Of a stretch of 18,918 nt of DNA, positions 2,688 through 18,343 are shown piece by piece. Made by a program: the position numbers and the translations under genes. Within the stretch, counting starts at the first letter, position 1; each line of letters starts with the position of its first letter. The stretch spans positions 1 through 18,918 of IMG/VR virus record IMGVR_UViG_2698536485_000019, one strand, 5' to 3'. Below the pieces are notes generated by a model. The model was not told the DNA's origin, made no database searches, and saw only the letters and a list, made by a program, of their open reading frames with translations. This stretch comes from a virus (taxonomy: Duplodnaviria; Heunggongvirae; Uroviricota; Caudoviricetes).

Positions 2688-2715
2688 AAAGGCCTGCGAT
2701 TACCAGCAGGCCTTT
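2688..2715. terminator. Perfect 10-bp stem hairpin at the 3' end of the HNH endonuclease gene (terminator-like, possibly bidirectional)
   Basis: aaaggcctgc (2688-2697) / gcaggccttt (2706-2715), 8-nt loop; T-run on the plus side (tatctgttttt) and TTATTTG on the minus side. Confidence 0.5.
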
Positions 2716-3325
2716 ATCTGTTTTTAACACGCTTTCGAGTCCTTTTAGATTTTTCCTTAAGATATTCCGCAAGTTTATCCTCATCATTATTAAATTGAGA
2801 TAAAAGCTCATGCTCGCAATTAAGTGCTTTACTCGCATAAGTTCCATATAGTTTCTTTCTTGCTAGTGCTGCTATGAATGCTGCATCTTCTTTGCTATCG
2901 AAATACCCTAACGATATTGTCTTATTTTTATAACCAACATAAGACTTCCACCTGCCAGTTGGCTTATACCAAGACACTCCAATTGCACCGGATGTGTTTA
3001 ATCTATTCCCTACAATGTTTCTTGCATTCTGCTCTTCTGTTGCCAGTCTTAGGTTTGAAATCCTATTGTCAAGTCTGTTCCCATTTACATGATCAATAAA
3101 CTTAGGAGGCCATTTTTTGTATACATAGAACCAAGCAAGTCTATGCGCCTTATACAAAACATTATTTATACTAATGCATATATAACCACCACTAACACCT
3201 CCAGCAATACTACCTTTTACTCTTACTACTGAATTTGTTTTTAGCCATTTAAATATTCCTGTTTCTGAGTCATATGATAATGTTGACAGAAGCTCATCGT
3301 GATCAATTAGTTTTTTTATTCGCAT
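2714..3325 (-). CDS. Free-standing HNH homing endonuclease with AP2-type DNA-binding domain
   Basis: 203-aa ORF; HNH motif IDHVNGNRLDNRISNLRLATEEQNARN and AP2-like segment GVSWYKPTGRWKSYVGYKNKTISLGYFDSKEDAAFIAA. The ~700-bp region is visibly AT-rich relative to its neighbours. Confidence 0.75.
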   Translation of the reverse strand: MRIKKLIDHDELLSTLSYDSETGIFKWLKTNSVVRVKGSIAGGVSGGYICISINNVLYKAHRLAWFYVYKKWPPKFIDHVNGNRLDNRISNLRLATEEQNARNIVGNRLNTSGAIGVSWYKPTGRWKSYVGYKNKTISLGYFDSKEDAAFIAALARKKLYGTYASKALNCEHELLSQFNNDEDKLAEYLKEKSKRTRKRVKNR

Positions 3326-3403: not shown

Positions 3404-3673
3404 TCATTGCTTCATCTCCCTTTCCATTTCATCAATGTCAACGTCATCAGGAAGATGGGAGCAATACGCCGCTATACCATGATGATTTATCTCATACCCT
3501 TTGAACGTTACCATCTGGTGCGTAATCTCAACTTCGTTCAGGAATCCGTCATCGCATAACTGCCTGGCTATTTTCGATTTGGTCTGGATTATTGGTAGTG
3601 CCTGTTCTTTCAAAGCGCATGATATTTGTGCATCCCATGCCTTTTCGAGAATAGCTAATTGTTTTTTATTCAT
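3404..3673 (-). CDS. Hypothetical nin-region protein
   Basis: 89-aa ORF whose ATG (3673..3671) overlaps the helicase stop (ATGA); no family recognised. Confidence 0.45.
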
Positions 3674-6063
3674 ACGTCAGCCCCTTGTGCATATCGTCTG
3701 CCACGCGCAGCAGGTGCATTTGATGCTGTGCAAATCTGTCTGGCTTCATCCTGGTCACATGCAACAAAGTGTCCGTTACAGAACCGCTGGTAAACCGTAC
3801 CAAGTGAGCCAAAACGGTTTTTCGTCACGATGATTTCAGCAAATGGCGCGGCGCTACTGTTCTCGTCATATACCGCTTCCCGATAGAGCATGATGATTGA
3901 GTCTGCGTCCTGTTCAATGCTTCCTGAATCACGCAAATCTGCGTTTGTCGGGCGTTTATTTGGTCGCTTCTCAACATCGCGCGAAAGCTGACTTAGGGAG
4001 ATAACTGGCGTTTTCAGGTCTTTCGCCATCGCCTTCAGGCTTCCGGAGATGTGAGCAATTGCGAGGTCGTTGCGGTCTGCTTTCGGCTTCTCAATCAGGC
4101 CAAGATAATCCGCCATGATGAGTGAGAGGTTTGGATTTTCCTGTTTGTGCCGTTCTGCGATTGAGCGTATTTCTTCGACCGATAACCGCGAGGCATCGAC
4201 TACCCATACATCCAAATCTGCAAGCTGACTCATGCCGTTAGCAACACGTGCCCAGCCTTCGTCATCCATCGATGCAGGATTTCGCAGTACGCTAACCGAC
4301 ATCCTCCCGGCGTTGGCAATGCTTCGCTCTGCAATCTGCAATGCGCTCATTTCCATTGAGAAAATCAATACCCCGCGCCGGACGTCAGAACCAGGAATAA
4401 CACGACTTGCAACGCCTTCGGCAATCTTCAGCGCCAGTTCCGTATTGTGCGTAACGATGTAATCCGTTGTCACATAGAGATGGCTAGGATGGCTTACCAT
4501 GATGCAGAGACACTCTTCTGGCTCAACAACTTCAACCGATTTGATACCCACACCAACGTCGCCAAGCCTGTTAATCCCGAGATTTTTGCGTAAACGTGGT
4601 GAGTGAATTTGCTCTATCAAAGATGATGGCAACTTCATGCTGACCATGTGTGCATCAAGTCCGTCGTGCTTCTCTCCTTTGTACGTGTAAACTATTCCCG
4701 TCCTGCTGGATTCTTTGGCGGTTCCACCTAAAGATCTAACAAGCCTTACTAATCCTTTAGCTAATTTCTGACTGGATGAACTAAAGCGGATGCATCCGGA
4801 CTTCTCAACCCAGCCATCTGTCTCGAGAAGGCCAGTTAAAACACCGGTACGTATTTCTTTGCTAGCACTAAAAATTTCTGCTGGGATTTCCTTCTCGGAC
4901 GCACCTTTCCCGATCACCCCAATGCCACGTAGTTTGTCCAATAGTGGGTTCTTCTGGCCTTTTTGGTTGCTTATCAAATAATCATTCTCTCCTACCTTAA
5001 CCAGTCGCAATGGTGCAATTGCATCACTCATGCGGCTCAGGACATATTCTTCCGAGTTGGTGAATTTGATGCCTTTTATCAACGAACCGTCACCAAGTAG
5101 AGCCCCAATAACCCAACCATCAAGGGGAATATTTTTACCAAAGTCTCCGGTCAAGGATGGCACTCTTATTCTTCCCTGATAACGTGTTTTTTGTAGCATC
5201 CCAGCCAGCGCATCAGTATCAACAACGCGTTTACCAGTAAATCTTGATGATGAAATTTCCCATAAGTGGTTGTCGGCACATTTCACGCTACGTCCGTCTT
5301 CAAAGGTGACTAAATATGTGAATTTCTTCCCTTGTGGGAAGACGCCAATTACCTCCGAAGGAAGCCCGTCTATTGACGCGATGCGATCGCCAATTTTGAC
5401 TTCTCCGTGAGTAGTCCAGGTGCCATCTGCAAGTAAAATCCCTTCGCTTAGCGCCATTGCTTTCCCCATACCAGGACGAGCAGCGATTATCACCAGGTCT
5501 TCTGCGTTCATCCCTCCGGTGATGGCGTCAAGTTCTTCGATTCCGGTCTTCAGGGTATCTGACTCTTCTCCGTTCCTCAGACGCCTGTCAAGCGTGTCAG
5601 TGTAGTCAGTGATGATTTCCCCTAACCGTACAGGTTTAACCTCGTCACGGGGCTTTCTGATGGCTGAGAGACGTTTTACAAGTTCATCCATCGCCTGACT
5701 CGATGCGTCGATGGTTCCGCTTTGGATTGGTTCACGCATTTCATCCATGATTTCCAGCACCAGACGGCGGTGATAGTTATCCGCGACCATTCCGGCATAT
5801 CCCTTCAGGTTTGCGGCACTCGGGCAGTTTTTGCTGGTCATCAGGATTGACGTGAAATGCTCCTCTCCGCACGCCTCGGCAACCATCAGCGCGTCGATTA
5901 GGTTTCTGTTTCGCGCCTGCTTACGGATAACCTCGAAGGCTTTCCGGTAGAGCGGAATTGAAAACGCCTCCGGCTCCAGCGTTGCCAGAACGTCGCTGGC
6001 AGTTGGCGTTAATCCACCAATCAGCAGGCCACCGATAACGCTCGCTTCGATATCCTGTCTCAT
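3670..6063 (-). CDS. DnaB-family replicative helicase (P22 gp12-like) interrupted by an intein
   Basis: 797-aa ORF. N-terminal domain with ...[18 protein letters not shown]..., Walker A AARPGMGK then a ~339-aa insertion, resuming [10 protein letters not shown]... with typical DnaB C-terminal motifs. Start overlaps the O-like gene stop (ATGA). Confidence 0.85.
4444..5460 (-). mobile_element. Intein with LAGLIDADG homing-endonuclease domain inserted at the helicase P-loop (GMGK | T)
   Basis: Helicase residues 202-540. Begins [14 protein letters not shown] (Ala, not Cys/Ser), block B ...[19 protein letters not shown]-like motifs [13 protein letters not shown] and [11 protein letters not shown], block [20 protein letters not shown], block G YIVTHN followed by +1 Thr, which restores GK-T of Walker A after excision. 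Confidence 0.75.
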
Positions 6064-7304: not shown

Positions 7305-7604
7305 TTAAAATTCCATTTGTATTTGATCAGAACGCTCGGTCTTGCACACCGGGCGTTTTTTATTGGTGAGTCCATCAAGCGCATACTTAAAAGCCCTGCT
7401 AATCGGACTGATGTCTGATGCCATTCCGAAAGCACACAAGACCGAAGCAATAAACCTCCAGTCCGTTCTGCTTATCTTCGATTCATGACAGCCAATCATC
7501 TTTGCCAGACCGCGCTGGGTAAGCGTTGACAGGTTGATGAGTAAATCTGTTTCTGCGCGATCAATTTCTCGCTGTGTTAGCTTGCTGTAACTTGCTTGTG
7601 CCAT
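7305..7604 (-). CDS. cII: CII-family transcriptional activator (P22 C1-like)
   Basis: 99-aa ORF ending ...NKKRPVCKTERSDQIQMEF, like the lambda CII C-terminus ...NKKRPAATERSEQIQMEF (from memory); sits downstream of cro and nutR. Confidence 0.8.
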   Translation of the reverse strand: MAQASYSKLTQREIDRAETDLLINLSTLTQRGLAKMIGCHESKISRTDWRFIASVLCAFGMASDISPISRAFKYALDGLTNKKRPVCKTERSDQIQMEF

Positions 7605-7664: not shown

Positions 7665-7706
7665 GCTCACCCGGTTAGAGGTGAAAGGCCAGAACTGTTA
7701 AAGAGC
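7665..7706 (-). promoter_or_regulatory. nutR (boxA + boxB)
   Basis: Minus-strand boxA GCTCTTTAACA (7706..7696) and boxB hairpin TCACCTCTAACCGGGTGA (7684..7665); same boxA and loop CTAACC as the nutL copy. Confidence 0.7.
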
Positions 7707-7713
7707 AATTTAC

Positions 7714-7979: not shown

Positions 7980-8630
7980 ATGAATACACAACTGATGGGT
8001 GAGCGTATTCGCGCTCGCAGAAAAGAACTCAAGATTAGGCAGGCTGCCCTTGGCAAGATGGTTGGCGTGTCTAATGTTGCTATTTCCCAATGGGAGCGAT
8101 CTGAAACTGAGCCCAATGGCGAAAACCTATTGGCCTTAGCCAAGGCTTTGCAGTGCTCCCCTGATTACCTGTTGAAAGGAGAGGATAGTCTTTCAAACAT
8201 TGCCTATCACAGCAGGCATGATCCAAGAGGTTCGTATCCTCTAATTAGTTGGGTAAGCGCAGGATGTTGGATGGAAGCTGTAGAGCCATATCATAGGCGT
8301 GCAATAGATAACTGGTACGACACAACGGTAGATTGTTCTGAAGACTCTTTTTGGCTCGACGTTAAAGGTGATTCAATGACTGCCCCGGCAGGACTGAGTA
8401 TTCCTGAAGGGATGATTATTCTCGTCGACCCAGAAGTCGAACCACGTAATGGAAAGCTGGTAGTCGCCAAACTTGAAGGAGAAAACGAGGCGACATTCAA
8501 AAAGTTAGTTATTGATGCCGGTAGAAAATTCCTGAAACCACTCAATCCACAATACCCAATGATTGAAATCAATGGGAACTGTAAAATCATTGGCGTTGTC
8601 GTTGATGCCAAGCTAGCAAACCTTCCTTAA
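7980..8630 (+). CDS. cI: Prophage repressor CI (P22 c2-type, HTH + S24 LexA-like autopeptidase domain)
   Basis: 216-aa translation MNTQLMGERIRARRKELKIRQAALGKMVGVSNVAISQWERSETEPNGENLL... with C-terminal S24 motifs (GDSM, KLVVAKL); matches P22 C2 as I recall it. Confidence 0.9.
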   Translation: MNTQLMGERIRARRKELKIRQAALGKMVGVSNVAISQWERSETEPNGENLLALAKALQCSPDYLLKGEDSLSNIAYHSRHDPRGSYPLISWVSAGCWMEAVEPYHRRAIDNWYDTTVDCSEDSFWLDVKGDSMTAPAGLSIPEGMIILVDPEVEPRNGKLVVAKLEGENEATFKKLVIDAGRKFLKPLNPQYPMIEINGNCKIIGVVVDAKLANLP

Positions 8631-8652
8631 GGGGCTTTCGCCCCTTTTTTAT
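8631..8652 (+). terminator. Rho-independent terminator after the repressor gene
   Basis: aggggc-tttc-gcccct followed by tttttta immediately after the cI stop. Confidence 0.6.
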
Positions 8653-8684: not shown

Positions 8685-8738
8685 GCGCCCATAAAATTAA
8701 GTTTTCTTCAAAAATGCACTTGACCAACAAATTAAGAG
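8685..8738 (+). promoter_or_regulatory. OL operators and pL promoter
   Basis: Operator-like sites aaattaagttttcttcaa (8685-8702) and aattaagaggtcttaaat (8720-8737); -35 TTGACC (8710-8715), 17-bp spacer, -10 TAAATT (8733-8738). Confidence 0.6.
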
Positions 8739-8794
8739 GTCTTAAATTTAAGCCGTCAGCAGGAGGCTGGAAGCCAAACGGAACAGATTGGCAG

Positions 8795-8834
8795 GCTCTT
8801 TAACATCGACGAACTCTCAACCTAACCGTTGAGA
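8795..8834 (+). promoter_or_regulatory. nutL (boxA + boxB)
   Basis: boxA GCTCTTTAACA (8795-8805); boxB hairpin TCTCAAC-CTAACC-GTTGAGA (8815-8834); upstream of N. Confidence 0.7.
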
Positions 8835-8944
8835 CCAGAACTTGAGTGGTTTTGGGGATGGCGCGAATTGCAGCTGCAAGACAGCGATCGAGAAGATAAG
8901 CACCTCGACGCGTCATGCGCCAAAGCCACTTAAAGGAGACCATC

Positions 8945-9250
8945 ATGGTAACCATTGTCTGGAAAGAATCCAAAGGTACGGCAAAAAGCCGCTACAAAGC
9001 TCGCAGAGCAGAACTTATTGCCGAGCGACGCAGTAATGAAGCACTGGCGCGAAAAATTGCGCTAAAGCTCTCTGGTTGCGTCAGAGCAGACAAAGCAGCA
9101 TCACTAGGAAGCCTTTGCTGCAAGAAGAAAGAAGAAGTTGTTCGAAAAAATAGAAGTATTTATTACAAGGATTCAAACCCATTAGGAAACAAAATACATG
9201 CAGTCCAAAAAATAAAATTGTACAGTAAACTACCGTACGGTGCTTATTGA
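8945..9250 (+). CDS. N: Antiterminator N (phage-21-type arginine-rich motif) with a divergent AT-rich 3' end
   Basis: ATG at 8945 after AAGGAG; MVTIVWKESKGTAKSRYKARRAELIAERR... matches the phage 21 N ARM as I recall it; located between nutL and the pL-operon accessory genes. Confidence 0.75.
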   Translation: MVTIVWKESKGTAKSRYKARRAELIAERRSNEALARKIALKLSGCVRADKAASLGSLCCKKKEEVVRKNRSIYYKDSNPLGNKIHAVQKIKLYSKLPYGAY

Positions 9251-9252
9251 GT

Positions 9253-9591
9253 ATGCTTATGGTGAAAAAGACTATTTATGTTAATCCTGACCGCGGACAA
9301 AACAGAAAAGTATCTGATAGAGGTCTTACATCTCGAGACAGGAGGAGAATAGCGAGATGGGAAAAGAGGATAGCATATGCATTAAAAAACGGTGTAACAC
9401 CTGGATTTAATGCTATAGATGACGGTCCTGAATATAAGATTAATGAAGACCCAATGGACAAAGTTGACAAAGCATTAGCAACACCATTTCCTCGCGATGT
9501 CGAAAAAATTGAAGATGAAAAATATGAGGATGTAATGCACAGAGTTGTTAATCACGCTCACCAACGAAATCCAAATAAAAAATGGTCATAG
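9253..9591 (+). CDS. Hypothetical protein (basic N-terminal half, acidic C-terminal half); accessory moron
   Basis: ORF in an AT-rich segment; first ATG 3 nt after the N stop (start uncertain, no clear SD); followed by its own terminator. No family recognised. Confidence 0.45.
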   Translation: MLMVKKTIYVNPDRGQNRKVSDRGLTSRDRRRIARWEKRIAYALKNGVTPGFNAIDDGPEYKINEDPMDKVDKALATPFPRDVEKIEDEKYEDVMHRVVNHAHQRNPNKKWS

Positions 9592-9592
9592 C

Positions 9593-9613
9593 CCACTTCG
9601 GTGGTTTTTTTAT
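9593..9613 (+). terminator. Rho-independent terminator (short stem, UUCG loop, U-run)
   Basis: cccac-ttcg-gtgg followed by ttttttta directly after the 9253-9591 ORF. Confidence 0.5.
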
Positions 9614-9620
9614 TGGCTGA

Positions 9621-9716
9621 ACTAACCGAATTTATTACAGCAAGCCACGCAGTGAAATGGGTGTGACTTGTGTTGGTCGCCAGAAAATGAAATTAGGCAG
9701 CAAACCACTTATTTGA
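9621..9716 (+). pseudogene. Displaced 3' remnant of an N gene (encodes ...NRIYYSKPRSEMGVTCVGRQKMKLGSKPLI-stop)
   Basis: Short open frame with no start codon; it parallels the C-terminus of the intact N gene 400 bp upstream (RSIYY...QKIKLYSKLP) and, as far as I recall it, the phage 21 N C-terminus. Confidence 0.55.
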
Positions 9717-9727
9717 GAGGAATTAAT

Positions 9728-10351
9728 ATGTCATCAATCCGCTTAACTACGAGAATGAAAGAGGAAATCGCTCGTAACGCTTTAATTAAGTCCGGGGTGT
9801 TCACTGAACTTGAAGAAGTAACAAAGTTAAAGAACCAGCTTGCACTTGACGCCAGAGTTATTGCGTTTGGCGGTAAAAAGAAAACTGAGGAAGTGGATCA
9901 GTTATCATCCAAGTTGGTAGCTATAAGTGAAGAACTTGGAAAGATGGGATGTTCATTTTACTCATACGATGTTAGTTCTACTTCAATTTATCTGACTGTA
10001 TCTGGCAGAAGGGTTGGATGGCATTCATATGGGGAAGACGGCAACGGCAAAGATATATTGCTCCCTACTCCGATCAAAGATAAATGCATGTTTGACGCAG
10101 AACACGAAATAACAAAAAGGTTTGATGAAATCTGCGCATTGCAACAAAAACTTGAAGCCAAGAAAAAGGATATCGAATCAAATGTATGGGCTGCTTTGAA
10201 CTCAGTCACAACAGTTAAGCGACTTATTGAAGTTTGGCCTGAAAGCAAAGAATTGCTACCAAAAGAAGCAGATAAAGCAAGTACAGCACTTCCTGCTTTA
10301 CGGGTAGAAGATTTGAATAAGATGATTGGACTTCCTTCCGAGGCCGCATAG
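9728..10351 (+). CDS. Hypothetical soluble protein, 207 aa (accessory gene in the N-cIII slot)
   Basis: ATG at 9728 with GAGAGG RBS at 9715-9720; coherent ORF with no hydrophobic segments; own terminator at the stop. No family recognised. Confidence 0.6.
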   Translation: MSSIRLTTRMKEEIARNALIKSGVFTELEEVTKLKNQLALDARVIAFGGKKKTEEVDQLSSKLVAISEELGKMGCSFYSYDVSSTSIYLTVSGRRVGWHSYGEDGNGKDILLPTPIKDKCMFDAEHEITKRFDEICALQQKLEAKKKDIESNVWAALNSVTTVKRLIEVWPESKELLPKEADKASTALPALRVEDLNKMIGLPSEAA

Positions 10352-10366
10352 TCGGCCTTTATTTTT
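10341..10366 (+). terminator. Rho-independent terminator
   Basis: aggccg-catagt-cggcct followed by ttattttt, overlapping the stop codon of the 9728-10351 ORF. Confidence 0.6.
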
Positions 10367-10485
10367 GGCATAAACAACAGAATAAATACTGCACTGTGTA
10401 TTCATTCCAACGAGTGAATACACGGAGCAATGTCGCTCGTAACTAAACAGGAGCCGACTTGTTCTGATTATTGGAAATCTTCTTT

Positions 10486-10512
10486 GCCCTCCAATGTGAG
10501 GGCGATTTTTTA
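10486..10512 (+). terminator. Rho-independent terminator within the noncoding gap upstream of ea10
   Basis: gccctc-caatgt-gagggc followed by gatttttta. Confidence 0.6.
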
Positions 10513-10531
10513 TCTGTGAGGATATGAACAG

Positions 10532-10900
10532 ATGTCAAACATCAAAAAATACATCATTGATTACGACTGGAAAGCATCAATAGAAATTGAAATCGACCAT
10601 GACGTAATGACAGAGGAAAAACTTCACCAGATTAATAATTTCTGGTCAGACTCTGAACACCGACTCAATAAACACGGCTCTGTATTAAATGCTGTATTAA
10701 TCATGCTGGCGCAACATGCTCTGCTTATAGCAATTTCAAGCGACTTAAATGCATATGGTGTTGTGTGTGAGTTCGACTGGAATGATGGAAATGGTCAGGA
10801 AGGATGGCCTCCAATGGATGGTAGCGAAGGAATAAGAATTACCGATATCGATACATCAGGAATATTTGATTCAGATGATATGACTATCAAAGCCGCCTGA
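10532..10900 (+). CDS. Ea10-like protein (lambda ea10/ssb position), function unknown
   Basis: 122-aa ORF immediately upstream of cIII, the position and length of lambda ea10 as I recall; sequence identity not verified. Confidence 0.55.
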   Translation: MSNIKKYIIDYDWKASIEIEIDHDVMTEEKLHQINNFWSDSEHRLNKHGSVLNAVLIMLAQHALLIAISSDLNAYGVVCEFDWNDGNGQEGWPPMDGSEGIRITDIDTSGIFDSDDMTIKAA

Positions 10901-10972
10901 GCGCGGCGTTACCGCATACCAATAACGCTTCACTCGAGGCGTTTTTCGTTATGTATAAATAAGGAGCACACC

Positions 10973-11113
10973 ATGCAATATGCCATTGCAGGGTGGCCTG
11001 TTGCTGGCTGCCCTTCCGAATCTTTACTTGAGCGAATCACCCGTAAATTACGTGACGGATGGAAACGCCTTATCGACATACTTAATCAGCCAGGAGTTCC
11101 AAAAAATGGATAA
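10973..11113 (+). CDS. cIII: CIII (inhibitor of FtsH-mediated CII degradation)
   Basis: 46-aa ORF (below the six-frame track cutoff) after AAGGAG: MQYAIAGWPVAGCPSESLLERITRKLRDGWKRLIDILNQPGVPKNG, near-identical to lambda CIII as I recall it. Confidence 0.8.
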   Translation: MQYAIAGWPVAGCPSESLLERITRKLRDGWKRLIDILNQPGVPKNG

Positions 11114-11412: not shown

Positions 11413-12069
11413 ATGGGTACTGCGACATTAATACTCGGTGAGTCTGGCACCGGAAAATCAACCAGTTTAAGAAACTTACCACCAGAAAAAACATTAATCA
11501 TACAGTGCATAAACAAACCGCTACCATTCCCATCAAGTGATTGGGTTAAAATAAGCAAGGAAAACAATAACGGGAACATATACAGAACAGATAATACTGA
11601 AAATATTGTAAGGGCACTAATTAATGCTCCGCATGAAATTGTAGTTATTGATGATTATCAGGCTGTGATGGTTAACGAACTAATGGGTAAATGCAATGAG
11701 AGAGGATATGACAAATTTACCTCGATAGGGAAAAACGCATGGGATGTGTTCAGGGCTGCTGGTGAAGGTGCAGACACTCGGAGAGTTTATATTCTGGCAC
11801 ACACGCAAACTGATGATTTTGGCTATACACGAATGAAAACCGTCGGAAAACTAGTCGATTCGACACTTGTTCCTGAAGGTTATTTCACTATCGTGTTAAG
11901 AACTCACGTACAGAACGGAAAATACTCATTTTCCACCCAGACAAACGGGAGTGATTGTTGTAAAAGTCCGGTTGGGATGTTTGATAGTCAGTTTATTGAT
12001 AATGATTTGTACGAAGTAGATAAAAAAATATGCTCTTACTATGGGTTTGAAAAAAATGAGACGTCTTGA
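11413..12069 (+). CDS. Sak4-like RecA-core ATPase (phage single-strand annealing recombinase family)
   Basis: 218-aa ORF with N-terminal Walker A GESGTGKST and Walker B-like VVIDDY; size and position (replacing exo/bet) fit Sak4-type recombinases of P22-like phages. Confidence 0.6.
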   Translation: MGTATLILGESGTGKSTSLRNLPPEKTLIIQCINKPLPFPSSDWVKISKENNNGNIYRTDNTENIVRALINAPHEIVVIDDYQAVMVNELMGKCNERGYDKFTSIGKNAWDVFRAAGEGADTRRVYILAHTQTDDFGYTRMKTVGKLVDSTLVPEGYFTIVLRTHVQNGKYSFSTQTNGSDCCKSPVGMFDSQFIDNDLYEVDKKICSYYGFEKNETS

Positions 12070-12661
12070 GGTATCCGGCGAGAGATTTGGCAATTTAGTT
12101 GTTATTGGTGATGCAGGAATGCGTGGTACTCAAAGGTTGGTAAACTGTGTGTGTGACTGCGGAGTAGTTTGTGTTAAACAGCTTGGCAACCTCCGTTCAG
12201 GGCACACAAGAAGTTGTGGTTGCTCACGCTCATCTACAACAAAAGCAAGAAAAAACAAACATGGCATGTATGGAACACCAACATACAAGTCATGGTCTTC
12301 AATGTTAACAAGATGCTTCAATGAAAGAAATAGTAAATACAAACACTATGGAGGAAGAGGAATAACTGTTTGTGAACGGTGGCTGAACTTTAAATTATTT
12401 TTCGCTGATATGGGAAAAAGACCTGACGGAACTACATTGGGAAGAATTGATAACAATGGTAATTACGAACCATCAAATTGCGAATGGCAGAAAAGTATCG
12501 AGCAAGCAAGAAATAAGAGTAATACCGTATTATTTAAATTCAATGGAGTGCTGGCAACAATTTCAGAGCACTGCGAAAAAACTGGATTAAACCCAAGCAC
12601 GGTAAGAAGCAGGATTTACACATATCATTGGTCTGTAGACAAGGCCTTATCAAAAGGATAA
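12041..12661 (+). CDS. Cys-rich HNH-family (variant) nuclease-like protein
   Basis: N-terminal Cys cluster CVCDCG...SCGC; C-terminal RIDNNGNYEPSNCEWQKSIEQARN parallels the HNH motif IDHVNGN...NLRLATEEQNARN of the 2714-3325 endonuclease, with the first His replaced by Asn. Start ambiguous (ATG at 12041 or 12056). Confidence 0.5.
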   Translation: MGLKKMRRLEVSGERFGNLVVIGDAGMRGTQRLVNCVCDCGVVCVKQLGNLRSGHTRSCGCSRSSTTKARKNKHGMYGTPTYKSWSSMLTRCFNERNSKYKHYGGRGITVCERWLNFKLFFADMGKRPDGTTLGRIDNNGNYEPSNCEWQKSIEQARNKSNTVLFKFNGVLATISEHCEKTGLNPSTVRSRIYTYHWSVDKALSKG

Positions 12662-16980: not shown

Positions 16981-17032
16981 TTCTTGTCCATAAGAGTATA
17001 ACCTGAGCGTGCTCTTGGACGCAGGAGGAACA

Positions 17033-18343
17033 ATGGCGAATTCAGCCTATCCAGCCGGCGTTGAAAATCACGGAGGAAAACTCCGAATAACGTTTAAGTA
17101 CAGGGGTAAACGAGTGCGCGAAAATCTTCGCGTGCCCGATACACCGAAAAACAGAAAGATCGCTGGTGAGTTAAGGGCTTCGGTCTGCTTTGCAATCAGA
17201 ACAGGAACGTTTGATTATGCCGATCGATTCCCTGACTCACCTAACCTGAAGCTATTTGGCCTGGTAAAAAAAGATATCACCGTCGGTGAACTGGCACAGA
17301 AATGGCTTACTCTGAAAGCAATGGAAATCGGTAGTAACGCCTTAAATCGTTATCAATCAGTGATGAAAAATATGCTACCGAGGCTTGGTCCTGGCAGGCT
17401 GGCGTCATCGATTACAAAAGAAGATCTGCTGTTTATCAGGAAAGATTTACTGACCGGGGAAAAGGGAAGCAGGAAAACCAGCACGTCCCGAAAAGGAAGA
17501 ACCGTACCCACAGTGAACTATTACATGACAACAACAGCCGGAATGTTCAGCTTTGCCGCCGAAAACGGGTATCTGGAGAAAAACCCGTTTAATTCAATAA
17601 CACCGCTGAGGAAATCAAAACCAGTGCCGGATCCACTGACCAGAGATGAGTTTAGCCGTCTCATTGATGCCTGCCATCATCAACAGACCAAAAACCTCTG
17701 GACAGTGGCTGTTTTTACAGGGATGCGACACGGTGAAATTGCCGCACTTGCATGGGAGGATATCGACCTGAAAGCTGGCACGATAACAGTGCGACGAAAT
17801 TTTACAAAAATAGGTGATTTTACGCTACCAAAGACCGACGCAGGCACTAACCGGGTTATACATCTTCTGGCACCAGCAATTGAAGCACTTAAAAACCAGG
17901 CGATGCTTACTCGTCTTAGCAGGCAGCATCAGATCACTGTTCAATTACGCGAGTACGGAAGAACAATTTTGCACGAGTGCACTTTTGTTTTCTGTCCGCA
18001 AATCGTTCGCAAGAATCACAAGGCGGGTATTAACTACGCGGTAAGCTCCATCGGAGCGACATGGGATTCAGCAATAAAAAGAGCGGGTATCCGATCCCGT
18101 AAAGCGTATCAGTCACGCCATACCTATGCGTGCTGGGCTTTATCTTCCGGAGCAAACCCGACATTTATTGCATCACAGATGGGGCACTCCAGCGCCAGCA
18201 TGGTCTACAATGTTTATGGTGCATGGATGCCTGAGTGCAGCGTGACTCAAGTTGCCATGTTGAATAATGTCCTTAATGCCCGTGCCCCAGACGTGCCCCA
18301 AAGTGACCAGGAGGATGAAATAAAATTATATTTTTCAAAATGA
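17033..18343 (+). CDS. int: Tyrosine-family site-specific integrase
   Basis: ATG at 17033 after AGGAGG; catalytic-domain motifs [15 protein letters not shown]...MGHSS...VYNVYGAW (R...HxxR...Y); lies at the prophage-host junction and its stop overlaps the wrbA-frame ATG. Confidence 0.85.

Follow-up and report, generated by a model that had tools for sequence, protein, structure and literature searches.

The slot between N and cIII of lambdoid phages houses accessory genes, and is occupied by ral and sieB in lambda and by sieB/gene 17 in P22. The nun gene of phage HK022 has been the subject of decades of genetics (GenBank X16093 and AF069308 for HK022 Nun), and its product is usually presented as a substitute for N in the N-less HK022. 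In the HK022 prophage, nun reportedly has its own constitutive promoter, P_Nun, a finding attributed to King et al. in 2000, and Nun is said, following Robert et al. in 1987, not to cross-react on the phi21 boxB. The published specificity of Nun is for the nut sites of lambda and lambda imm434 (PMC5386594; PMC4124055). HK022 nun mutants show normal growth and lysogenisation, and no other role is known for the gene (PMC4124055), while high levels of Nun arrest elongation complexes lacking boxB, with a Kd of ~300 nM against an estimated ~100 nM in HK022 lysogens (PMC5386594). A second family relevant to this locus, Nmad5 (nucleotide modification associated domain 5), is found inside a thymidine-hypermodification gene cluster in M6-like phages (PMC9476957). 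The only genetic datum on Nmad5 comes from a Dhillonvirus, in which the substitution K296E led to escape from the defence system Tmn; deletion of the gene left the Tmn phenotype unchanged, whereas the point mutation changed it.

The window analysed here is a stretch of 18,918 nt from a Caudoviricetes virus (IMG/VR record IMGVR_UViG_2698536485_000019). A preliminary description of the interval 9253-10351 reported two unrecognised genes, of 112 and 207 aa, between N and ea10/cIII. Both open reading frames are indeed present on the plus strand, at 9253-9591 and 9728-10351, flanked by N (8945-9250) and by ea10/DUF2528 (10532-10900) followed by cIII (from 10973), with the Rfam cIII thermoregulator at 10960-11018; the Rfam scan returned no RNA family within 9253-10351. 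The left part of the locus contains the following features.

7667-7707, minus strand: nutR, with boxA TGCTCTTTAAC (7707-7697) and boxB UCACCU-CUAACC-GGGUGA (7684-7667)
8720-8748, plus strand: candidate pL, promoter-like by consensus match only (TTGACC, 17 nt, TAAATT)
8795-8834, plus strand: nutL, with boxA GCTCTTTAAC (8795-8804) and a phi21-type boxB hairpin (8815-8834)
8945-9250, plus strand: N antiterminator, 101 aa, with a phi21-type arginine-rich motif
9133-9252, plus strand: conserved 120 bp 5' of nun, overlapping the 3' end of N; expected P_Nun site
9253-9591, plus strand: nun, transcription arrest/lambda exclusion factor, by PDB, PHROG and HK022 matches
9593-9611, plus strand: weak terminator-like hairpin 3' of nun (4-bp CCAC/GUGG stem, UUCG loop, U7)

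The product of the first gene, which begins MLMVKK and includes RDRRRIARWEKRIAYAL, is 112 aa long if translation starts at the ATG; published work uses a 109-aa form, which begins at GTG 9262. It agrees with chain N of PDB 6ALG in 108 of 109 residues and with chain B of 1HJI, the boxB-binding peptide, in 26 of 26, shares 99.1% identity with HK022 Nun, and matches phrog_5632 with an E-value of 4.5e-71. The sole difference from 6ALG chain N is S11R (109-aa numbering), residues 12-109 being identical; this substitution falls outside both the arginine-rich motif (ARM) and the C-terminal arrest segment, and the RNAP-arrest residues listed in PMC5386594 (H93, R94, N97, H98, H100, R102, K106, K107 and the penultimate W108) are all kept. 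By these matches, the first gene encodes HK022 Nun, a well-studied prophage exclusion protein. Profile and PDB searches, the former as recommended in the preliminary description, recovered Nun (6ALG, 1HJI) for the first gene and a full-length Pfam Nmad5 (PF18757) for the second, the structure model of the latter giving no PDB fold match, and neither gene can be called uncharacterised. The suggested basic and acidic halves of the first protein hold for the N-terminal half, with a charge of +9, but the C-terminal half is only mildly acidic (-3) and the whole protein is basic (pI 9.65, net charge +6).

The setting of the gene is that of HK022 nun, which occupies the same pL-operon position left of cI, with the same 120 bp upstream and a hairpin and T-tract downstream. 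The gene order here is cro (minus), cI (plus), nutL, N, nun, which places nun in the pL operon, directly left of the immunity region and in the same direction as cI. The candidate pL, in the oL/pL region, follows the cI terminator (8629-8646) and lies between cI and nutL, a position that agrees with the annotations of mEp235 and HK022. The segment 9133-9252 is near-invariant in the window, mEpX1, PA28, HK022 and HK75, and P_Nun is expected to lie within it. Neither nun nor Nmad5 was preceded by a promoter in a consensus scan, but little weight attaches to this negative result because the scan also misses the experimentally reported P_Nun. The first gene does lie in AT-rich DNA, as had been noted, the GC content of the nun segment (9133-9608) being 0.363, compared with 0.457 over the window as a whole and 0.484 in the 5' portion of N; on the mosaic map, the last ~38 codons of N (from ~9133) are part of this module. 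The hairpin at 9593-9611 folds no better than shuffled sequence (z = -0.14) and went unreported by the terminator scan. However, HK022 has a stronger hairpin, CCCGC-TCAG-GCGGG, at the same position, with one compensatory change (G-C to A-U), so that the element is probably a genuine terminator of low strength.

An N gene is missing from HK022 and HK75, which rely on put RNA; in the window, by contrast, a complete phi21-type N with phi21-type nut sites precedes nun. The N protein matches phrog_271 (E 1e-31) and is annotated as N in mEp235; its ARM agrees with the phi21 N peptide (PDB 1NYB) in 22 of 22 residues. The nutL boxB forms a 7-bp stem with a CUAACC hexaloop (fold -8.0 kcal/mol, z = -2.6), the mEp235 annotation having a boxA at this position, and the same hexaloop is found in nutR, between cro and cII; CUAACC is the phi21 boxB loop of PDB 1NYB (PMC12550061). 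A search of the whole window that allowed up to 3 mismatches detected no lambda-type boxB. With N and both nut sites of the prophage being of phi21 type and a lambda boxB absent, Nun should spare its own phage.

Together, the interval very probably carries two unrelated, independently mobile accessory genes within the early leftward (pL) operon of a lambdoid prophage with phi21-type antitermination, one of which, nun, would exclude lambda. Nun would be made in the lysogen, its source in HK022 being the constitutive promoter just upstream, and the matching 120 bp are conserved here. Its N-terminal arginine-rich helix would bind the lambda-type nut boxB on the nascent RNA of a superinfecting phage, in competition with lambda N, and its C-terminal segment (H93, H98, H100, K106, K107, W108) would wedge into the RNAP elongation complex and block translocation. 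Early transcription of lambda and lambda imm434 would halt a short way beyond the nut sites, with exclusion of the incoming phage, while the resident prophage is predicted from its sequence to escape through its own phi21-type N and nut sites.

The distribution of the two genes was surveyed in 5,426 complete E. coli genomes and does not bear out the idea of a two-gene cassette: nun occurs in 221 genomes and the Nmad5 gene in 211, but no more than 14 genomes have them side by side, each thus also occurring without the other. HK022 and mEpX1 carry nun without Nmad5, and Stx2a phages carry Nmad5 without nun. The segments in common with HK022 are only 9133-9608 and then 10372 onward, and that in common with the Stx2a phage is only 9624-10950. 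Judged by these boundaries and counts, nun and Nmad5 are separate mosaic modules and not a functional unit. The right-hand part of the interval contains the following features.

9621-9716, plus strand: relic of an alternative N 3' end (TNRIYYSKPRSEMGVTCVGRQKMKLGSKPLI, then stop); right-hand joint of the nun insertion
9728-10351, plus strand: Nmad5-family gene, 207 aa (Pfam PF18757, phrog_1965, PGAP name)
10340-10368, plus strand: intrinsic terminator over the Nmad5 stop codon (7-bp GC stem at 10340-10359, -11 kcal/mol, then UUAUUUUU)
10484-10512, plus strand: strong backbone intrinsic terminator (tL-type), upstream of ea10 (hairpin 10484-10505, -12.9 kcal/mol, z = -3.7)

In Stx2a phage LC616032, Nmad5 comes directly after an N gene whose genuine C-terminus has the same residues as the relic between SEMGV and the stop. 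The terminator at 10340-10368 is also a mosaic joint: 10336-10513 is common to mEpX1, which is without Nmad5, and 10372-10513 is common to HK022 and HK75, the terminator at 10484-10512 being annotated in mEpX1 and HK75. The adjacency of nun and Nmad5 would have come about through mosaic recombination at the duplicated N 3' ends and the terminator joints. As the shared segments indicate, the terminators after Nmad5 also serve as lambdoid-backbone tL-type terminators and recombination joints. A terminator had been proposed after each gene and taken as a sign of moron architecture; the one after Nmad5 is convincing (-11 kcal/mol) and the one after nun weak, but the Nmad5-side terminators lie in backbone segments shared with mEpX1 and, for the second of them, with HK022 and HK75, which weakens the architectural argument. 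What stands of the moron-type exclusion proposal concerns the first gene, a prophage exclusion gene placed after N, whereas Nmad5, for which the scan found no promoter, is continuous with N in Stx2a phages. The hairpin at 10484-10505 belongs to a third, stronger terminator, absent from the preliminary description.

The N-nun-Nmad5 arrangement itself is already known. Over the segment 8640-10513, mEp235 (JQ182731 / NC_019708) and Kapi1 (MT813197) keep the gene order and are 97-98% identical to the window (98% in mEp235), and mEp235 was deposited with the annotations 'antitermination protein N', 'transcription termination factor Nun' and 'hypothetical protein'; unlike the window, mEp235 has no ea10 between the terminator region and cIII. 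The finding is therefore essentially ordinary, a classic nun beside an independently inherited Nmad5-family gene, and matters little as a discovery, nun being classic, the Nmad5 family named and the arrangement in GenBank. It does draw attention to a known lambda-exclusion gene that ~4% of complete E. coli genomes carry, STEC with Stx1 prophages among them, and that is invisible in standard annotation because PGAP calls it 'hypothetical protein', as it does in all E. coli genomes listed, and no NCBIfam model matches it. A contiguous phi21-type nutL-N-nun block was found in 211 of the 221 nun-positive E. coli genomes, and HK022 keeps a 38-codon relic of a phi21-type N; that nun lies nearly always behind a phi21-type N, together with this stump, provides an evolutionary footnote on put antitermination replacing N. 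A literature search on nun in N-carrying phages returned nothing.

The Nmad5 gene has a good Shine-Dalgarno sequence, and its product matches PF18757 with an E-value of 2.7e-71 and a score of 240.3 bits, where the cutoff is 27, its residues 4-203 covering profile positions 1-206 of 206; PGAP/NCBI name the gene Nmad5. The NCBIfam scan gave no match for either protein. In keeping with the soluble protein first described, the Nmad5 product has no hydrophobic segment (maximum Kyte-Doolittle 19-residue window 0.61, GRAVY -0.32). The family comprises 70 close and 2,333 distant relatives, the latter being clusters at 50% identity, and most of its proteins stand alone at ~200 aa. Lambdoids of Serratia, of Providencia and from metagenomes likewise have the gene in the early left operon, and virulent phages also carry the family. 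In Stx2a phages the gene is broken by an IS element and is therefore dispensable there. The AlphaFold2 model (pLDDT 85, with residues 184-207 of low confidence) showed no fold match in the PDB and no enzyme-like fold, and a PDB sequence search with the Nmad5 profile gave chance-level matches only (E at least 0.29). No obvious catalytic set stands out among the conserved residues, most of which are W, P, G, L or E; the conserved C-terminal surface reads T162-x-K-R-L-x-x-x-W-P-E ... L-N-x-x-I-G-L-P. The Dhillonvirus Nmad5 (SM_S22 CDS6) has this C-terminal motif too, and its K296, the basic residue at which charge reversal gives escape from Tmn, aligns with R165. The Dhillonvirus protein is, however, 254 aa long (annotated 334 in SM_S22) and encoded antisense inside a head-gene module, whereas the window version, at 207 aa, stands alone as an early gene of a temperate lambdoid and is not accompanied by modification-pathway genes. 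In M6-like Pseudomonas phages, tblastn of the window Nmad5 matches the C-terminal part only (residues 121-207).

As part of the preferred account, Nmad5 would most likely be an early lytic gene, transcribed with N from pL. With rather less than even confidence, it is tentatively suggested that Nmad5 is a non-enzymatic helical protein that works alone via its C-terminal surface, with host defence or the DNA metabolism of phage or host as its target, and that no DNA modification takes place here. A narrower reading, for which we see about one chance in four, makes Nmad5 a non-enzymatic effector of the immediate-early class that shares a transcript with N, upstream of the first strong tL terminators, and whose conserved basic WPE surface (K164/R165 ... 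W170-P171-E172) would engage a host factor or a defence sensor such as Tmn; as a secondary point, the N-nun pairing would be ancestral and prevalent, and the N-less put-RNA system of HK022 derived from an N-nun state. Where nun and Nmad5 do lie together, which is rare, P_Nun transcripts that run on past nun might also give Nmad5 expression in lysogens.

It is unlikely that Nmad5 is an enzyme, or an essential accessory subunit, that modifies phage DNA bases and shields the lambdoid genome from restriction. The family name in Pfam and at NCBI points that way, as does the M6-like hypermodification cluster (PMC9476957), the YuA/M6-like Pseudomonas phages sharing the C-terminal half, but the window contains no aGPT-Pplase, kinase, hydroxymethylase or radical-SAM genes, so that the association behind the name is absent, and such partner genes are likewise missing from three other lambdoid contexts of Nmad5. 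A DNA methylase lies 3-6 kb from Nmad5 in two distant contexts and a Dam gene on the other arm in a third; the Dam methylase of the window likewise maps to the arm opposite Nmad5. The model has no enzyme-like fold, the invariant residues are not a catalytic set, deletion of the Dhillonvirus gene was without the effect on Tmn that the point mutation had, and the literature searched reports no biochemical activity for Nmad5. The name is unsupported by the evidence here, and functional work would be reasonable for this very large phage family (>2,300 clusters at 50% identity).

Somewhat less likely still is the expression of Nmad5 in the lysogen, by P_Nun readthrough across the weak hairpin or from a promoter of its own, as a second anti-phage defence. 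The weakness of the hairpin after nun, the good terminators downstream of Nmad5 and the genetic interaction with the defence system Tmn are consistent with such a role; against it, in most carriers Nmad5 directly follows N or a repressor gene, with no nun or P_Nun upstream, PADLOC gave no match, and the presence of the family in virulent phages fits a phage-side function better than a host-protective one.

It has also been considered, as an improbable addition to lambda exclusion, that Nun in N-carrying phages tunes their own N-dependent transcription, damping pL/pR readthrough in lysogens or timing early expression. This would account for the tight N-nun linkage (the block in 211 of 221), and the N stop and nun start codon are 2 nt apart; boxB-free arrest at high Nun (Kd ~300 nM vs ~100 nM in lysogens; PMC5386594) would offer a route. 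However, the prophage boxB loops are CUAACC and not the lambda target of Nun, HK022 nun mutants are normal in growth and lysogenisation (PMC4124055), and the embedding of P_Nun in the 3' end of N explains the linkage simply, both moving together.

The reading proposed at first, a new two-gene defence/anti-defence cassette whose first protein is a DNA-mimic anti-restriction factor (Ocr/ArdA type), has next to no chance of being right: lambda ral and sieB do share the slot, the segment is AT-rich and a hairpin and T-tract follow each gene, but the first gene is Nun at 108/109, with a pI of 9.65 and a known RNA- and RNAP-directed mechanism, neither protein has a PADLOC match (0 families at E <= 1 in PADLOC-DB 2.0), and nun and Nmad5 are inherited separately. 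The likeness to lambda ral/sieB and P22 sieB/gene 17 is one of position, these being likewise accessory, exchangeable genes between terminators in the same slot; the Pfam, PHROG and PADLOC scans revealed no sequence kinship of ral/sieB/gene 17 to nun or Nmad5, and Nun targets transcription elongation, whereas the ral/sieB/gene 17 types target restriction or the membrane. In PA28, a gp17-like superinfection exclusion gene is found in the N-to-cIII slot.

Minus-strand open reading frames within the interval (9276-9470, 9988-10377 and others) were rejected, being antisense to two strongly supported genes and called in no annotated relative. The closest chromosomal match to the window is E. coli CP062871, at 99.8%.

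The open reading frames at 9253-9591 (112 aa) and 9728-10351 (207 aa), both read as first described, had been presented as an uncharacterised two-gene accessory cassette between N and cIII. The observation is real, but its interpretation is largely superseded: on its sequence, gene 1 is the textbook gene nun, and gene 2 encodes a member of a named family, with a full-length match to PF18757 (240 bits). The arrangement is already known from public records, having been deposited and annotated in complete form in mEp235 (98.2%), and it is also present in Kapi1 (97.1%). The remaining interest lies in the function of Nmad5, the product of gene 2, and in the linkage of nun to N. The window covers the immunity and early region of a lambdoid prophage, whose leftward (pL) operon reads along the + strand:

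7305-7604, - strand: cII (gene order)
7707-7697 (boxA) and 7684-7667 (boxB), - strand: nutR, CUAACC hexaloop
7714-7899, - strand: cro, P22-type (gene order)
7980-8630, + strand: cI, S24/HTH repressor (gene order)
8629-8646: cI terminator
between the cI terminator and nutL: pL-like promoter
8795-8804 (boxA) and 8815-8834 (boxB): nutL, CUAACC hexaloop
8945-9250: N, downstream of nutL and followed by nun and Nmad5
10532-10900: ea10 (DUF2528)
from 10973: cIII, with the Rfam cIII thermoregulator at 10960-11018
farther left than cIII: AAA_24 ATPase, Abc2 and Ead/Ea22 genes
17009-18343: integrase, then a host-like flavoprotein gene

Over its whole length the gene 1 product matched PHROG 5632 ('Nun-like transcription termination factor'; E 4.5e-71), and it was identical at 108/109 positions to Nun in the E. 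coli RNA polymerase (RNAP) elongation complex (PDB 6ALG, chain N), at 26/26 positions to the boxB-binding peptide of 1HJI, and at 99.1% to the HK022 nun products (X16093 and AF069308). The sole difference from 6ALG, S11R, lies outside the arginine-rich motif (ARM) and the C-terminal arrest segment; the 109-residue numbering of the structural literature begins at the GTG at 9262, and the 112-aa reading is also annotated in X16093. [quoted passage not shown] Its sole known role is the exclusion of lambda and lambda imm434, whose nut sites are the same, and nun mutants of HK022 grow and lysogenise normally (PMC4124055). Given the identity to Nun and its published mechanism, the suggestion that gene 1 encodes a DNA mimic is refuted; its 'acidic C-terminal half' does carry a net charge of -3, but the acidity is mild and the pI of the whole protein is 9.65. 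Despite being well characterised, nun represents an annotation gap: PGAP calls it 'hypothetical protein' in every E. coli genome listed (e.g. NZ_CP062871, NZ_AP018808), none of the NCBIfam models matches its product, and the PA28 RefSeq record annotates only a 45-aa 'Nun-like' CDS where tblastn aligns all 112 residues (93.8%).

The ARM of the window N agrees with the phi21 N peptide in PDB 1NYB at 22/22 positions, and both nut sites carry the CUAACC loop that typifies phi21 boxB in 1NYB (PMC12550061). Lambda-type boxB (GCCCTGAARAAGGGC) was absent from the window with up to three mismatches allowed. From these features together it is predicted that Nun should spare its own phage. A contiguous phi21-type nutL-N-nun block (window 8790-9612) was found in 211 of the 221 nun-positive E. 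coli complete genomes. HK022 and HK75 differ from the window, where nun lies directly behind this block, in carrying put RNA and no N, and theirs is therefore the minority arrangement. Directly upstream of nun, HK022 (AF069308 2352-2495; window 9133-9250) still has, as an in-frame relic, the last 38 codons of a window-type N (37/38 identical), with the TGA stop changed to TGG. Together, the linkage and the relic suggest that the HK022 lineage descends from an N-nun phage; a literature search, whose coverage takes in only part of the older HK022 work, found no discussion of these points.

Pairwise mapping of related phages, combined with gene content, showed that nun and Nmad5 do not form a unit. 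Each gene occurs without the other: of 5,426 complete E. coli genomes, 221 carry nun and 211 carry this Nmad5 gene, and the two are contiguous in 14. With HK022 the common stretch is limited to 9133-9608 (the final 38 N codons, nun and the hairpin) and picks up again at 10372, whereas the Stx2a phage LC616032 shares 9624-10950 (N 3' end, Nmad5 and ea10) and lacks nun. In mEpX1, N and nun are present without Nmad5, yet 10336-10513 is retained, including the 'Nmad5' terminator; the segment 10336-10371 (the terminator and the final 16 nt of the Nmad5 ORF) is common to mEpX1, in which a different small gene ends there, and this terminator is a mosaic joint between exchangeable genes. The interval 9621-9716 encodes TNRIYYSKPRSEMGVTCVGRQKMKLGSKPLI*, identical from SEMGV to the stop to the genuine N C-terminus of the Stx2a phage, which there directly abuts Nmad5. 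On either side, nun is therefore flanked by a homologous version of the N 3' end, the footprint of recombination within N. The HK022 region resuming at 10372 carries an IS903 insertion flanked, in AF069308 (2868-2906 and 3964-4075), by a 9-bp duplication of the stretch that corresponds to window 10402-10410, where the site is uninterrupted.

The preliminary description, a moron having a promoter and a terminator of its own, probably holds in its essentials for nun, whose segment is indeed AT-rich (GC 0.363 at 9133-9608 vs 0.457 for the window). The 120 bp upstream of nun, which overlap the N 3' end, are nearly invariant in both N-linked (window, mEpX1 and PA28) and put-linked phages (HK022 and HK75). 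King and colleagues are said to have placed, in 2000, constitutive nun promoters directly upstream of the gene, with termination expected just downstream. The hairpin at 9593-9611 (4-bp stem, UUCG loop, seven U) was missed by a terminator scan and is no more stable than shuffled sequence (z = -0.14), but it is accepted as a weak terminator because HK022 has a stronger hairpin at the equivalent position, with a compensatory G-C to A-U difference. For Nmad5, no promoter-like site was found in a consensus scan that also misses the nun promoter, and in Stx2a phages the gene lies downstream of N with an 11-nt gap. Its terminator is a clear intrinsic one (10340-10359, -11 kcal/mol); this hairpin and a stronger one at 10484-10505, annotated as a terminator in mEpX1 and HK75, sit on backbone segments common to other phages, and the segment 10372-10513 is also found in HK022 and HK75. 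On the simplest reading, N and Nmad5, together with nun in phages that have it, constitute the promoter-proximal pL unit upstream of the first strong tL terminators.

The Nmad5 family is very large: with E <= 0.001 and clustering at 50% identity it falls into 2,333 clusters, and most members are stand-alone proteins of ~200 aa. In 55 diverse members strict invariance is confined to G48, W170, P178 and N197; there is also a near-invariant C-terminal motif (T162..L166...W170-P171-E172..E175-L176 ... L196-N197...G201), and as aligned the conserved residues form no obvious catalytic set. A confident AlphaFold2 model (pLDDT 85.3, pTM 0.70, confidence low past residue 184) predicts three long helices, a beta hairpin (86-100) and small C-terminal helices; no counterpart of this fold was found among solved structures, and a viral structure library returned other Nmad5 proteins only. 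In M6-like phages Nmad5 is accompanied by hypermodification-cluster partners, none of which is present in the window, and in a Serratia prophage, a Providencia prophage and a metagenomic lambdoid it likewise occupies the early left operon, a short distance past the S24 repressor gene. Our best guess, of low confidence, is that Nmad5 acts early and alone as a non-enzymatic protein, whose conserved basic C-terminal surface would be an interaction site; that it is an enzyme, in keeping with its NCBI name ('Nmad5 family putative nucleotide modification protein'), seems improbable.

Dhillonvirus is the sole source of experimental data on Nmad5: K296E (K216E in SM_A8) allows escape from Tmn defence, deletion of the gene gives no escape, and its cloning is toxic (PMC11846954). 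K296 of SM_S22 (PP627283) aligns with window R165, at the centre of the conserved motif TVKRLIEVWPE. The SM_S22 gene (PP627283 5005-6009, - strand) is annotated as 334 aa, including 80 extra N-terminal residues; their coding sequence overlaps the scaffold gene, which runs on the opposite strand, and the 254-aa homologues (BF9 and SM_A8) lack them. The SM_S22 start call is probably over-extended, which would explain the K296/K216 numbering offset. In LC616032 (locus L003, 2045-4041) the Nmad5 gene is split by an IS element with 108-aa and 296-aa transposase ORFs, and other Stx2a records match residues 34-207 only at their best place and have another match elsewhere, as would be expected from the same split. 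The gene therefore appears, from these records, to be dispensable in those phages.

Elsewhere in the window, a Cys-rich 206-aa ORF of the pL operon (12041-12661, + strand), which overlaps the end of the AAA_24 ATPase gene, had no match in a Pfam search. The 797-aa DnaB-like replicative helicase (3670-6063, - strand) has a LAGLIDADG/homing-endonuclease segment (~residues 393-454) between its DnaB N- and C-terminal domains, and therefore probably contains an intein; an HNH_3 and AP2 homing-endonuclease-like gene (2714-3325, - strand) lies between ninB and the helicase. An ORF6N/P22_AR_C antirepressor gene (294-1028, - strand) directly follows a C4 antisense RNA with its a1/b1 target and isrK (Rfam; 1081-1279, - strand); together they make up an antisense-controlled antirepressor module of the P1/P7 type, located in the nin/late region of this lambdoid prophage.
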